DNA of 63,146 nt, the filler included, from Octopus bimaculoides (Eukaryota): NCBI RefSeq assembly GCF_001194135.2. It is 6 parts of 5 records of this genome, joined end to end, with 100 filler letters (N's around TTAATTAATTAA, not from the genome) between each part and the next. Parts side by side here need not be neighbours in the genome. Positions count along the whole stretch, not along the records: positions 1 to 5,426 come from NC_068984.1; positions 5,527 to 25,012 come from NC_068987.1; positions 25,113 to 42,877 come from NC_068997.1; positions 42,978 to 49,194 come from NC_068997.1; positions 49,295 to 56,177 come from NC_068981.1; positions 56,278 to 63,146 come from NC_068995.1. One strand, written 5' to 3'. Numbering within the stretch: the first letter of the stretch is position 1; every line of letters starts with the position of its first letter. Of the stretch, positions 1 through 61,158 are shown one piece after another. The position numbers were made by a program, and so were the translations under genes. A model generated the notes under the pieces. It saw only the letters and a program-made list of their open reading frames with translations, ran no database searches and was not told where the DNA came from.

Positions 1-252
1 CTGTCGAACGCCGACGAAGGGAAATAACCCTGAAATCCGGATACGTTCGTGCTGCTGGCCGAGGTGAGAGGGATAACTCCCTTGGCAAACAGGACACAGT
101 CGTGTGTCGATAAGCCAGCTGGAGGAGATGTCCTCCTGGGGCTAAAAGCAACAGTAACATCCACCCCTAGGGGTCAGCCACACTTAAGTGGCAATATACT
201 ACACTTTATCGTGCAGTTACTGTTAATACTTCATATAGAGAATTAACATTGC
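1..252 (+). mobile_element. Short hammerhead-bearing repeat, family H1 (pLTR or retrozyme-like); runs off the window start
   Basis: Homologous to 60773-61158 (opposite strand) and to the 58670-58950 fold-back; shared agccagctggag...tcctggggctaaa. Followed by (TA)n. Confidence 0.7.
5..49 (+). ncRNA. Type-I hammerhead ribozyme motif, minimal form with palindromic stem III
   Basis: Stem I CGAACG/CGUUCG; core CCGACGA (U4C relative to CUGANGA); stem II AGGG-AAAUAA-CCCU; GAA; stem III AUCCGGAU; H17=A. Folded by eye; activity untested. Confidence 0.75.
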
Positions 253-3200
253 TTATATATATATATATATATATATTCAATATGTATATTTTCAGGATTA
301 AATAAAAAAGACAACAGACAGGAATTATGACATACCTATATATATAATTCCAAAAAGTGTGAAGTAAATAAACAAATGAACATATACTAAATACACAGGC
401 AAACAGAAAACACAGAAGGTCACCAACTCTTCATTAGTTATCGGCCAGAGGGTCAATTTCAGCCATTATCAATAATATTGCTTCTACTCTGGAGACACTG
501 GCAAGAAACTTGCTGGGAATGGAACCAAAGCATAACAAAACAAGATGGGCTCAAGACAAGCCCATTAGTGGATGGATGAGGGACAAAACAATAAATGGAA
601 TAAAGGCTTAGGTTCACACAATGACAACAATTAATGATATACAACAAAAAAAAAAGCCTTGGGGCTGCAAGACAAGACAAAACTGGGTAACGTGAAGGAG
701 AAATGAAAACTGTCCTAAAGGACTATAGACATAGGAGGGATAGAGTGAGGAGCTCAGAAAATTGTGACTAGTGCAGTCGAAGGCAATGTGAAAAAGAACG
801 ACACTGCCTTAGGTCCTCACAGGTCACGTGATAGTGGGAGGAGGGTAATAGAGAAAGTCAGTGAGAGGGAGAGAAAGAGAGAGATATACATATATATCAT
901 CATCATCATCATCACCATTTAACATCCGCTTTCCATGCTGGCATGGGTTGGATATCTTAACAGAAACAGCAGGGCCAGTGGCTGCACAAGGTTCCATAAT
1001 CTGTTTTGGCTTGTTTACTACAGCTGGATGCCCTTCCTCATGCCAACCACGTTACAGAGTGTACTGGATGCATTTTACATGGCACCATTAATAGTGCTTT
1101 TTACGTGACACCAGCACCACACTTTTTACATGGCACCAGCTCTGACAAGGTCACCAAGTACCTTGCAAGAAAAAATCCTTTCAACTGGGACAAGAAGAGT
1201 ATTATTGAGGGTGTGTGGCAGTGTGCCAATTGAGAGAATAAAGATACAGATAGGACAGATATAGGTGACTTGCTGTAGAATAGATACATGGATAACCCAG
1301 TTGAAAAATAAAGGAGAGTGAGTTAGAGAGTAAGATGAAGAGAGTGATAGTAAAGAAGTGTTGGCAAAATGTGTAGGGACATACCCTCAAGGGACATTAG
1401 AGGTAGTGAGAACAGGTGAGGTGATATAGAGGCTTGAGCTGGGTGATGGGCAGGATGAAGTGACTGTTGCAAATGATGAAGAGAAATGGTGGAGAAGCTT
1501 GTGGGAAAGGGTTGCAGTAGATATGAGAGAGCGTTGATGGTGATAGCAAGTAATTGAGGTTTTGATGATGGAGAGCAGTACTTGGAGGAGAGAGGAGGTG
1601 CAGAAAGGAGGTGATTGGTACAGACAGTAGGTGGGGGAAGAAAGGTAACTGGGCTGGGTGAGGAGGAAAGTTAACTGATAAGCACAGGGATGTAGTATGT
1701 GCATATTCTGCTCTCAGGTGATAGAGGAAGTGATGGGTGTTAAGGAATGAAATATGGGTGGAGGGAGAAGGTTGAGGGAACAGAGAGGATGGAGGTAAAT
1801 CATACCAAGGTAGTTTTAAGATATAAATTCTGTGCTGGTGGACAAGTCTTCTTGAGTGCAGCTAAGCACCAGATATTTTGGTCCTTTGTCATCTAATTCA
1901 TAAGGCACAGCATCTTGAGATTGGTTTTCAATACTTCATCACATGTTTTCTTTGGCCTCCTCTTCCACAAGTTCTATCCACTGTAATTAAAGAGGTATAT
2001 ATGAGGTAGTGAACTCGCAGAATCATTAACATGCGGGGCAAAAATTCTTAGCAACATTTCATTCGTCTTTTTGTCCTGAGTTCAATTTCCACTGAGGTTC
2101 ACTTTGCCTTTCATCCTTTTCGGGTTGATAAAATAATTACCAGGTGAACACTGGGGTCGATGTAATCAACCTACCCTTTCCCCTTAACTTGTTGGTCTTG
2201 TACCAAAATTTGAAACAAATTATGGAGATATGTATTGATGCTCGAAATGAGGAGTAGATAGACAGCCAACAACTGATGAAGGGTCGTTCTTTATGTTACT
2301 TGTCTTGTTTTCCATTTGTTTCTCTCATTGTTTGCAAACCAAAATTTGTCTTCGTATTTCATGTTGTTTACATTTTGTGACGTCCTGTACCCATATATGC
2401 ATATATATATATATATATATATATATATACACACATATGTATGTACATATATGTATGTATATATGCATATATATATATATCTATATCTATATATATATAT
2501 ATATNNNNNNNNNNNNNNNNNNNNNNNNNNNNNNNNNNNNNNNNNNNNNNNNNNNNNNNNNNNNNNNNNNNNNNNNNNNNNNNNNNNNNNNNNNNNNNNN
2601 NNNNNNNNNNNNNNNNNNNNNNNNNNNNNNNNNNNNNNNNNNNNNNNNNNNNNNNNNNNNNNNNNNNNNNNNNNNNNNNNNNNNNNNNNNNNNNNNNNNN
2701 NNNNNNNNNNNNNNNNNNNNNNNNNNNNNNNNNNNNNNNNNNNNNNNNNNNNNNNNNNNNNNNNNNNNNNNNNNNNNNNNNNNNNNNNNNNNNNNNNNNN
2801 NNNNNNNNNNNNNNNNNNNNNNNNNNNNNNNNNNNNNNNNNNNNNNNNNNNNNNNNNNNNNNNNNNNNNNNNNNNNNNNNNNNNNNNNNNNNNNNNNNNN
2901 NNNNNNNNNNNNNNNNNNNNNNNNNNNNNNNNNNNNNNNNNNNNNNNNNNNNNNNNNNNNNNNNNNNNNNNNNNNNNNNNNNNNNNNNNNNNNNNNNNNN
3001 NNNNNNTATATATATATATATACACACATACACACACACATATACATATACACGTATATTTATATACACATGTATACATATTGCTATACGCATATGCATA
3101 CAGGTGAAGATTCATTTTGTTCATTTGTGTGTGAAGCACATTTTTTCTTTGCATGCATATTGAATGAAAAATTATTCATGAACAGGACTTTTATGGCTGG

Positions 3201-3659
3201 CTGCACTTTCTCATGTCAGCACTTTCCAGCTTACAAGTAACAGATTTTTTCATTCCAGAGATTTCATAAATATCATCATCATCACCATTATTATTGTATT
3301 AGTGTCTGCGTATCCATACTTGCATGGCACAGATGATAATTCATGGAGCTAGAGTTTTCTTTGGATAGATGCCCTTTCTGCTGCTTGCCCCAGCCTTGGC
3401 TGTTTCCAGTTAAGGTGAAATTTTCCTAGTCTATTGAACAAGACTGCTTGGAAGTGTTTTATGTAAGAATCTGGAAACACTGTTCAAAAAACATTTAGTT
3501 TACAAATAACAAGCTGTATGGCAAGAAACCTGATTATTCTTTATTTGTATACCAGCAAACAATGAGGGCAACTCACAAACTCACGCATACACCCACGTGC
3601 ATTTACACACAGGTACATAATATCAGTTTTCATCCACAAAATGCACTCATATGTAAATC

Positions 3660-60621: not shown

Positions 60622-60706
60622 TTGCTTGTCATTTCATCATGGCTGGCGAATATTACAATTGTCTCATCTGGTAAGGTTCGTTTCAGGTAACGGATTAATG
60701 AATAAT
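60622..60706 (-). CDS. Tandem ILEI-domain protein exon, domain 1
   Basis: tgttccag acceptor, gtaagc donor, 85 bp. (D)YSLIRYLKRTLPDETIVIFASHDEMTS(N). Phase 1 to phase 2. Confidence 0.88.
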
Positions 60707-60772
60707 CTGGAACATAATAAATATATAATTTCATAGATATATATATATATATATATATATATATATATATAA

Positions 60773-61158
60773 ATATGTTAAATCTCTGAACGAGGTATTA
60801 ACAGTAATTGCACGACAAGGTGAAGTATATTTGCCACTCAAATGCGGCTGACCCCTAAGGGTGGATGTTACTGTTGCTTTTAGCCCCAGGAGAACATCTC
60901 CTCCAGCTGGCTATTGACACACATCTGTGTCCTGTCTGTATTTGCAAAGGGAAGTCATTCTTCCCATCTTGATCTGCGATACGTACGGACTCGAGTTTCT
61001 GGGTATTTATCCGTCCTCAGCGTACGACAATCGCCGACCTTTGATACGAAAAATGTCCCGATGCAAATACATATATCCTTTTTCCAGTGAAATTATTCAC
61101 TGATCTTGAAAAAGTGAAAACAAGCAATGTTAAATCTCTGAACGAGGTATTAACAGTA
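60773..61158 (-). mobile_element. Family H1 copy as a 352-bp monomer plus a 32-bp terminal direct repeat
   Basis: atgttaaatctctgaacgaggtattaacagta occurs at 60775-60806 and 61127-61158. Contains the hammerhead. Lies in the 487-bp intron 60707-61193. Confidence 0.72.
60982..61026 (-). ncRNA. Type-I hammerhead ribozyme motif, same family as 5-49
   Basis: Stem I CGUACG/CGUACG; canonical core CUGAGGA; weakened stem II CGGA-UAAAUA-CCCA; GAA; palindromic stem III ACUCGAGU; GUC cleavage triplet. Confidence 0.78.

Follow-up and report, generated by a model that had tools for sequence, protein, structure and literature searches.

A noncoding 352-nucleotide (nt) repeat carrying a type I hammerhead ribozyme motif is present in two copies in a 63,146-nt stretch of Octopus bimaculoides DNA (the window, which joins six parts of five records of the NCBI RefSeq assembly GCF_001194135.2, with 100 filler letters between parts). 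Our preferred explanation, in which we place moderate confidence, is that the repeat is a retrozyme without long terminal repeats (non-LTR retrozyme) that would be self-cleaved, circularized, and mobilized by an enzyme of Penelope-like elements (PLEs). In this view, transcripts with units joined head to tail would first cut themselves into RNA of unit length, probably in the form of double hammerheads; a host ligase would circularize this RNA, and a Penelope-like reverse transcriptase (RT)/endonuclease would then go around the circle a little more than once in copying it into AT-rich DNA. These three steps, cleavage, circularization, and Penelope-type mobilization, are modeled on related systems: for coral, mussel, and axolotl, the retrozyme cycle is described as a multimer, self-cleavage, RtcB-type ligation, and reverse transcription by a helper (PMC7229834). 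The copies in the window are probably decayed passengers, copy 2 being an old insertion and copy 1 resembling a younger, transcribed subfamily. The class of element to which the repeat belongs has already been described in animals; the enzyme that mobilizes animal retrozymes has only been proposed.

Hammerhead motifs and anatomy of the repeat

Both motifs (Table 1) share a 45-nt layout made up of helix I (6), core (7), helix II region (14), GAA, an 8-nt palindrome, H, and helix I (6). Five pairs of helix I are identical in the two copies and the remaining one is a double change (A-U to U-A), while the 8-mers of helix III are perfect palindromes in each copy that differ from one another at four of the six inner positions. 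The predicted cuts have the contexts AUA in copy 1 and GUC in copy 2 (after nt 60988). The coordinates, length, layout, swapped base pair, and unlike palindromes of the original prediction, made from the sequence alone, were recovered exactly, and the predicted cuts are those given there. The three helices are arranged around the core, helix I being the open-ended one. The core (CUGANGA / GAAA / UH) is complete in copy 2, and copy 1 deviates from it by U4C. Helix II has 4 bp in copy 1, with A-U at 10.1-11.1, and 2 bp in copy 2, which is mismatched at 10.1-11.1 (C.A) and at the fourth pair (A.C); most of the family DNA described below has at least 3 bp. The idea of one defect per copy was therefore right about U4C in copy 1 and the weak helix II of copy 2, but the latter has two mismatches. 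In both copies, helix I is preceded by UGU and followed by U, and loop 2 is A-rich and 6 nt long; these may be the residues of the loop 1-loop 2 tertiary contact. As a natural hammerhead variant, U4C has reduced activity, and a weak helix II occurs naturally too (PMC3088659).

Judged by their sequence, the motifs are hammerheads of canonical size and not of the minimal Penelope type that had been proposed. The canonical retrozyme/satellite class has a 6-bp helix I, a 4-bp helix II, and a 2-bp helix III with a palindromic tetraloop; the minimal PLE hammerhead has a short helix I, a long helix II, a bulged base, and little or no helix III (PMC4209133). A descriptor that allowed one core mismatch at most and required a 6-bp helix I and at least two of the four helix II pairs matched the window four times, and a palindromic helix III was found only in the two motifs. 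In 60 block-wise dinucleotide shuffles, the mean number of matches per window was 0.28, or 0.017 with a palindromic helix III, and a chance origin of the two motifs is excluded. A stricter version (U4 required, helix II of at least 3 bp) recovered neither copy.

The sequences around the motifs share 79.4% identity across 296 columns (E 4e-67). They are thus homologous, as predicted, but the unit is 351 to 352 nt long, not ca. 250 bp, and copy 1 is cut by the edge of the window. Copy 2 consists of one 352-nt unit and an exact 32-nt terminal duplication, i.e., it is a 1.09-mer. Both copies are followed by (AT)n at the 3' end, and their end points lie no more than 5 nt apart. On the circularized unit, the longest open reading frame (ORF) starting with ATG has 21 amino acids (aa) in the sense and 35 aa in the antisense direction; an open stretch of 60 codons in copy 1 is interrupted in copy 2. 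The predicted cut site lies in the middle of copy 2. Since this copy runs through the cut site and exceeds one unit, its template was probably longer than one unit, either a ligated circle or an uncut multimer. PLE insertions are characterized by a tail of 30 to 40 bp, inverted 5'-truncated copies, and a bias toward (TA)n targets (PMC8557442); in the anole PLE, two RT start sites flank the tail, and AT-rich DNA is preferred for cleavage (PMC11167929). By analogy, insertion marks of the Penelope type are seen here in the duplicated end, the (AT)n, and an inverted pair nearby. Joints between opposite strands, at least seven among those listed, were also found in the DNA contigs described below.

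An ordinary short interspersed nuclear element (SINE) or satellite, spread by other means and with a vestigial hammerhead, seems improbable in view of this anatomy. Octopus genomes are rich in SINEs, many of them unclassified (PMC13282606 and PMC8967140), and the defects in both window copies would suit a vestige. However, the unit-spaced terminal duplication and a cut site in mid-copy are unlike what a linear SINE transcript would leave. No tRNA was found in the window, although the repeat could still have a decayed tRNA-like head. None of the 12 matches in the window to a B-box-like motif falls in either copy.

The two copies are identical at 116 of 129 nt in the 3' domain and at only 22 of 46 nt in the rod arm. 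That core and helices have been maintained while the neighboring rod arm diverged this far suggests selection on the ribozyme, and the proposal that structure was kept as the family diverged stands. Covariation between the copies amounts to three double changes, seen in two sequences only and not in a genome-wide set, with a crude chance of 0.0007 to 0.004 if changes are independent. A consensus fold of four sequences had a double change in only 1 of 20 pairs, with -0.06 as the covariation term. Among the paired columns of the 3' domain, 2 of 72 differ, versus 12 of 61 unpaired ones (Fisher P 0.003), a comparison biased by a structure that was predicted from the same two sequences.

The predicted circular fold of the unit has -111.4 kcal/mol, with 61% of its nucleotides paired and a z score of -5.5 (0 of 100 shuffles were as low); helix I is prolonged into a long rod, after which comes the multi-hairpin 3' domain. 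As a linear molecule the unit reaches a z score of -6.6, compared with -0.4 to -2.9 for 10 linear control strands from five other repeats of the window. A separate hairpin at 61084-61103 (-), in the 5' part of the unit, lies inside a second depth peak of the DNA and RNA reads. The lowest-energy structure of the 45-mer monomer is not the hammerhead in either copy. In the dimer of copy 1 it is a double hammerhead (-32.5 versus -27.6 kcal/mol for two monomers), so that the dimeric form that had been suggested is predicted for this copy. The lowest dimer fold of copy 2 is a different one; there, helices I and III form and helix II does not. Helix III folds with 2 bp in the monomer and 8 bp in the dimer.

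The family in DNA and RNA reads

Four of 24 listed runs were aligned to positions 60775-61250 at 80% likeness: DNA as contigs from organism A (X1) and organism B (X14), and RNA as reads (X21 and X23), with ca. 6% of each of the two RNA runs covered. Summed contig depth relative to flank depth, which provides rough figures and not copy numbers, was ca. 1,900x in X1 and 1,400x in X14 at nt 61010 of the hammerhead, and up to ca. 70,000x and 30,000x, respectively, in the 3' domain. The repeat is a high-copy family in DNA. At nt 61010, the base that completes a third G-C pair in helix II makes up 97% (X1) and 99% (X14) of the DNA depth, so the A.C defect is private to copy 2. For the C.A mismatch at 10.1-11.1, A is found at the 5' position in 22 to 23% of the DNA depth, the partner position being outside the listed variant rows. 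Fold energies were compared for 36 of the 40 variant rows listed (158 in total), leaving aside 60799, 60807, and two flank rows. The seven variants above 85% in both DNA runs stabilized the fold, with a mean change of -1.54 kcal/mol, whereas random transitions matched for type averaged +0.33 (P 0.0014), and the 28 transition rows had a mean of -0.03 against +0.65 (P 0.027); several minority variants disrupt predicted pairs. Joints that go back by a similar spacing were found in the contigs of both X1 and X14. A tandem organization is indicated by these joints, by the 1.09-mer, and by the RNA joints described below; no array with two intact hammerheads was seen directly. The exact family pattern had no match in metagenome, genome, or viral contigs.

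One X14 contig crosses the 5' junction of copy 2 with four differences in 129 nt, and the insertion is thus probably older than the split between organisms A and B. This shared junction, and the sense orientation of copy 2 within a 487-nt intron, could also be expected of a domesticated intronic ribozyme regulating its host gene, and amniotes do have hammerheads conserved within introns (PMC6155905). We consider this very unlikely. Copy 2 has a privately weakened helix II, against 97 to 99% of the family DNA, which fits either decay or selection against cutting of the pre-mRNA, and the upstream exon of the host gene had no RNA reads in the ca. 6% of X21 and X23 that was covered.

Family reads numbered 925 of 12.9 million in X21 and 640 of 11.5 million in X23 (56 to 72 per million). 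Only one (X21) and five (X23) of them matched the locus of copy 2 at 99% or more, and this locus is therefore not the main source of the RNA. A head-to-tail joint from 61158 to 60831 plus 23 letters, corresponding to a 351-nt unit, was found in 23 reads with 14 different starts in X21 and in 14 reads with nine starts in X23. The shorter side of these joints reaches 62 nt, exceeding the 32-nt genomic duplication, and the 23 letters are exactly nt 195-217 of copy 1. Most of the aligned RNA reads (87% and 86%) run into unlike sequence, and the largest such loose end (255 reads in X21 and 195 in X23) is again exact copy 1 sequence. The copy 1 allele at 60842 accounts for 57 to 63% of the RNA reads, 5% of the X1 depth, and at most 0.1% of the X14 depth, and that at 61146 for 76 to 81%, 16%, and at most 0.1%; on the other hand, copy 1 alleles at 60816, 60819, 60915, and 60991 are scarcer in RNA than in X1. 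These values suggest that a younger subfamily of the copy 1 type dominates the RNA, with the caveats that the individuals are not the same ones and that contig depth is a poor measure. Copy 1-type reads cease to align before the hammerhead, and the core of the expressed subfamily lies outside the aligned part. The only read-end pile-up listed consists of five molecules at 61064.

Two further signals stand apart in the RNA. An allele at 61091 (-) makes up 40 to 44% of the reads, compared with 0.6% (X1) and 0.2% (X14) of the DNA depth, and may come from a single locus with strong transcription or from the way in which reads align beside the adjacent insertion. A loose end at 60846 (77 and 47 reads) reveals yet another family, with the 3' hairpins in common but a different end.

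Circle, multimer, or Penelope-like terminal repeat

Several results weigh against a self-cleaving, circular element. Both cleavage and the circle are predictions from related systems, neither having been observed here. No pile-up of read ends was seen at 60988/60987 in X21 or X23, although such libraries need not show one, and the 37 head-to-tail RNA reads fit circles or tandem genomic copies alike, tandems being present in the DNA runs. The two read directions are about equally frequent, hence the RNA could not be assigned to a strand. The family makes up 0.004% of the letters in RNA versus 0.28% in DNA (rough values), a low level unlike that of the abundant mussel circles, although these libraries may not retain small circles. 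The base completing helix II at nt 61010 was found in only 6 of 14 reads of X23 (31 of 31 in X21). The double hammerhead of copy 2 (-22.9 kcal/mol) is less stable than its lowest dimer fold (-26.9). No core variant appears among the 40 of 158 rows listed, which establishes neither conservation of the core across the family nor that U4C is private. Rfam hammerhead models, one of the checks recommended with the original prediction, detected neither motif region at E<=10, and a scan of the whole window at E<=1 had no hammerhead among the best 150 of 165 matches, mostly microsatellite-driven miRNA matches. In the flanks of copy 2 no target-site duplication was found, the longest shared word being 5 nt, beside the (AT)n. 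Lastly, a comparison of the unit with 92 PLE loci, none of them known to be from octopus, revealed no sequence link by blastn (best E 0.91) or nhmmer, and tblastn with 92 PLE-type proteins yielded at best a weak match (E 0.007, with three sequences in the database).

Some of these points would be explained if the same element, with the same Penelope-type helper, used uncut read-through multimers as the template, without a circle and with a weak or dispensable hammerhead, which we consider possible but rather unlikely. Tandem joints do occur in DNA, and the cut site is unmarked by read ends. In anole, a PLE with a mutated hammerhead was still able to insert, the main substrate in vitro being uncut RNA (PMC11167929), while eight of nine Xenopus retrozyme dimers did not cleave (bioRxiv 10.64898/2026.07.22.740005); from these results, dependence on the ribozyme should not be assumed. 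The related family of the inverted pair shares the 3' domain, and its two fragments in the window lack the hammerhead, both being 5' truncated. On the other side, the retention of core and helices, with three double changes, next to a rod arm with 22 of 46 identical positions suggests selection on the ribozyme, and circles have been shown for mussel, coral, and axolotl retrozymes (PMC7229834). Either template agrees with the part of the original "RNA-replicated" proposal that implies retrotransposition through an RNA template; of RNA-to-RNA copying there is no sign here.

The repeats could also be pseudo-LTRs (pLTRs) broken off from an autonomous PLE instead of an independent minielement, and the tail, the (AT)n, the inverted copies, and the hammerhead itself are all PLE features (PMC8557442 and PMC4209133). 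The 87% and 86% of aligned RNA reads that continue into unlike sequence could be interpreted along the same lines, but the largest loose ends belong to the sequence of copy 1 itself, and a repeat spacing of 351 to 352 nt leaves no room for an RT/GIY-YIG ORF. Besides, the hammerheads found at 33 of the 92 PLE loci differ in form: their helix III palindromes have 4 to 6 nt, and in most of them one base is bulged and helix II is longer. These loci have no sequence in common with the unit. We therefore regard pLTRs as an improbable origin. Among the PLE loci, L020, L022, L029, L052, L060, L071, and L088 (host DNA in metagenomes or metagenome-assembled genomes [MAGs]) have paired hammerheads, some with a U3-A8 core; several of the bacterial MAG records L081-L088 contain PLEs, and these PLEs are probably animal DNA. 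Viral contigs had no PLE loci.

Within the preferred explanation of a circular non-LTR retrozyme, a more specific version can be put forward only tentatively: a young, lineage-specific subfamily of the copy 1 type would now be active as a 351-nt circle, the conserved 3' hairpin domain, which other very abundant octopus repeats also have, would be the signal by which a Neptune-type enzyme selects its passengers, and the tail of 32 to 37 nt would reflect two initiation sites of that enzyme. If this held, the family would allow a direct test of which enzyme mobilizes animal retrozymes and in what way.

Neighboring features and known systems

The features of the window are collected in Table 1. 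The copies of the inverted pair have no hammerhead, and the left arm continues into a tail-like segment. The right flank of the pair (to 58986) holds a more diverged look-alike of that segment, as if the pair may have been inserted into an older tail. The subfamily is also present in RNA (57 reads in X21). The closest named relatives of the RT remnant are O. bimaculoides and O. sinensis proteins (up to 69% identity). Intact relatives have RT and GIY-YIG domains, and two of them the C-x4-C-x2-C linker, a mark of Neptune/Nematis PLEs (PMC8557442). The remnant shows that the Penelope enzyme class is present in this genome, with no sequence link to the 352-nt unit. The broken ORFs at 15274-16709 are probably the remnant of an LTR retrotransposon.

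Table 1. Coordinates of the repeat, its motifs, and other features of the window
Feature	Position	Strand	Remarks
Copy 1 of repeat	1..254	+	5' part outside window; ends in terminal ("tail") segment, then (AT)n
Copy 1 type I hammerhead motif	5..49	+	Core with U4C; helix II of 4 bp; helix III palindromic; cut predicted after nt 43
Broken Penelope-like RT remnant	3658..4945	-	About aa 1-431 of intact relatives; frameshifted, 3' truncated
Broken ORFs	15274-16709	+	One with DUF7083 match, E 1.8e-17
Other interspersed repeats	896-1103, 2011-2183, 7651-8075, 17892-18134, 45848-46023, 57219-57603, others		Five tested, z no better than -2.9
Head-to-head inverted pair, related family	58670..58953		Arms 58708-58824 / 58837-58953, 96% complementary, 5' truncated
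Three exons, probable ILEI-domain gene	60056-61244	-	Pfam ILEI on one exon, E 1.6e-4, below curated cutoff
GT-AG intron (487 nt), probable ILEI-domain host gene	60707..61193	-	Copy 2 in sense orientation
Duplicated end, 32 nt (PLE-type "tail" by size)	60775..60806	-	Then (AT)n; PMC8557442, PMC11167929
3' multi-hairpin domain	60807..60935	-	Common to a second family; candidate enzyme recognition signal
Full 352-nt noncoding unit, copy 2	60807..61158	-	43% GC, strongly self-paired; hammerhead at tip of long helix I rod
Copy 2 type I hammerhead motif	60982..61026	-	Core complete; two mismatches in helix II; cut predicted between 60988/60987
First 32 nt of unit	61127..61158	-	Exact repeat 352 nt downstream

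A literature search at the level of titles and the starts of abstracts found no report of a cephalopod retrozyme, although supplements, subscription papers, or Repbase/Dfam may hold one. The small hammerhead variants of Lunse et al. 2017 may include octopus motifs. In the available text of two papers on octopus repeats, "ribozyme" and "hammerhead" are absent from PMC13282606 and "ribozyme" from PMC8967140; "octopus" is absent from the available text of PMC7229834, whose supplement may list further invertebrate retrozymes. The sampling of the Xenopus study (Li, Clavereau and Pollet, bioRxiv 10.64898/2026.07.22.740005) comprises 31 vertebrates, three insects, and one anthozoan, with no mollusc. 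Rfam models miss the octopus repeat, of which there are perhaps thousands of copies. One genomic copy of its family has both a hammerhead of the canonical retrozyme type and insertion marks of the Penelope type; with a young subfamily enriched in RNA, the family provides a system in which the circle-plus-Penelope model can be tested.

Like the PLE pLTR hammerheads, the octopus element is associated with a tail of the 30- to 40-bp class, inverted 5'-truncated copies, AT-rich or (TA)n sequence, and a palindromic helix III (PMC4209133, PMC8557442, and PMC11167929). Unlike PLEs, it has no ORF, and its hammerhead, with a 6-bp helix I, a 4-bp helix II, and an 8-nt palindrome, is not minimal (PMC4209133). 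It shares with the Xenopus retrozymes the coexistence of monomer and tandem copies and a proposed mobilization by PLE proteins, but the link to PLEs is pLTR homology in Xenopus, which we did not find here, and insertion marks in octopus (bioRxiv 10.64898/2026.07.22.740005).

It is the animal non-LTR retrozymes described by Cervera and de la Pena in 2020 (PMC7229834) that provide the closest comparison. A retrozyme was recognized by a short (150 to 450 bp), low-GC, noncoding unit with a type I hammerhead, and the octopus unit has all of these. Published units measure 350 to 390 bp in mussel, which forms circular RNAs, 330/350 bp in axolotl, and 220 to 245 bp in coral. The octopus family differs in its cephalopod host, in that its one full copy in the window is dispersed and amounts to a 1.09-mer, ending in a 32-nt duplication and (AT)n, with no target-site duplication found, and, compared with the mussel, coral, and axolotl elements, in a low RNA abundance in two libraries and in cleavage and circles that are here predicted only. 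The axolotl HHR_Amex2 has, like copy 2, a mismatch at the base of helix II. With 351 to 352 nt, no coding capacity, a GC content below 50%, two subfamilies, a type I hammerhead of the canonical class whose helix III has 2 bp and a tetraloop, strong self-pairing, head-to-tail forms, and PLEs in the same genome, the octopus family is likely a newly found member of the known animal non-LTR retrozymes.

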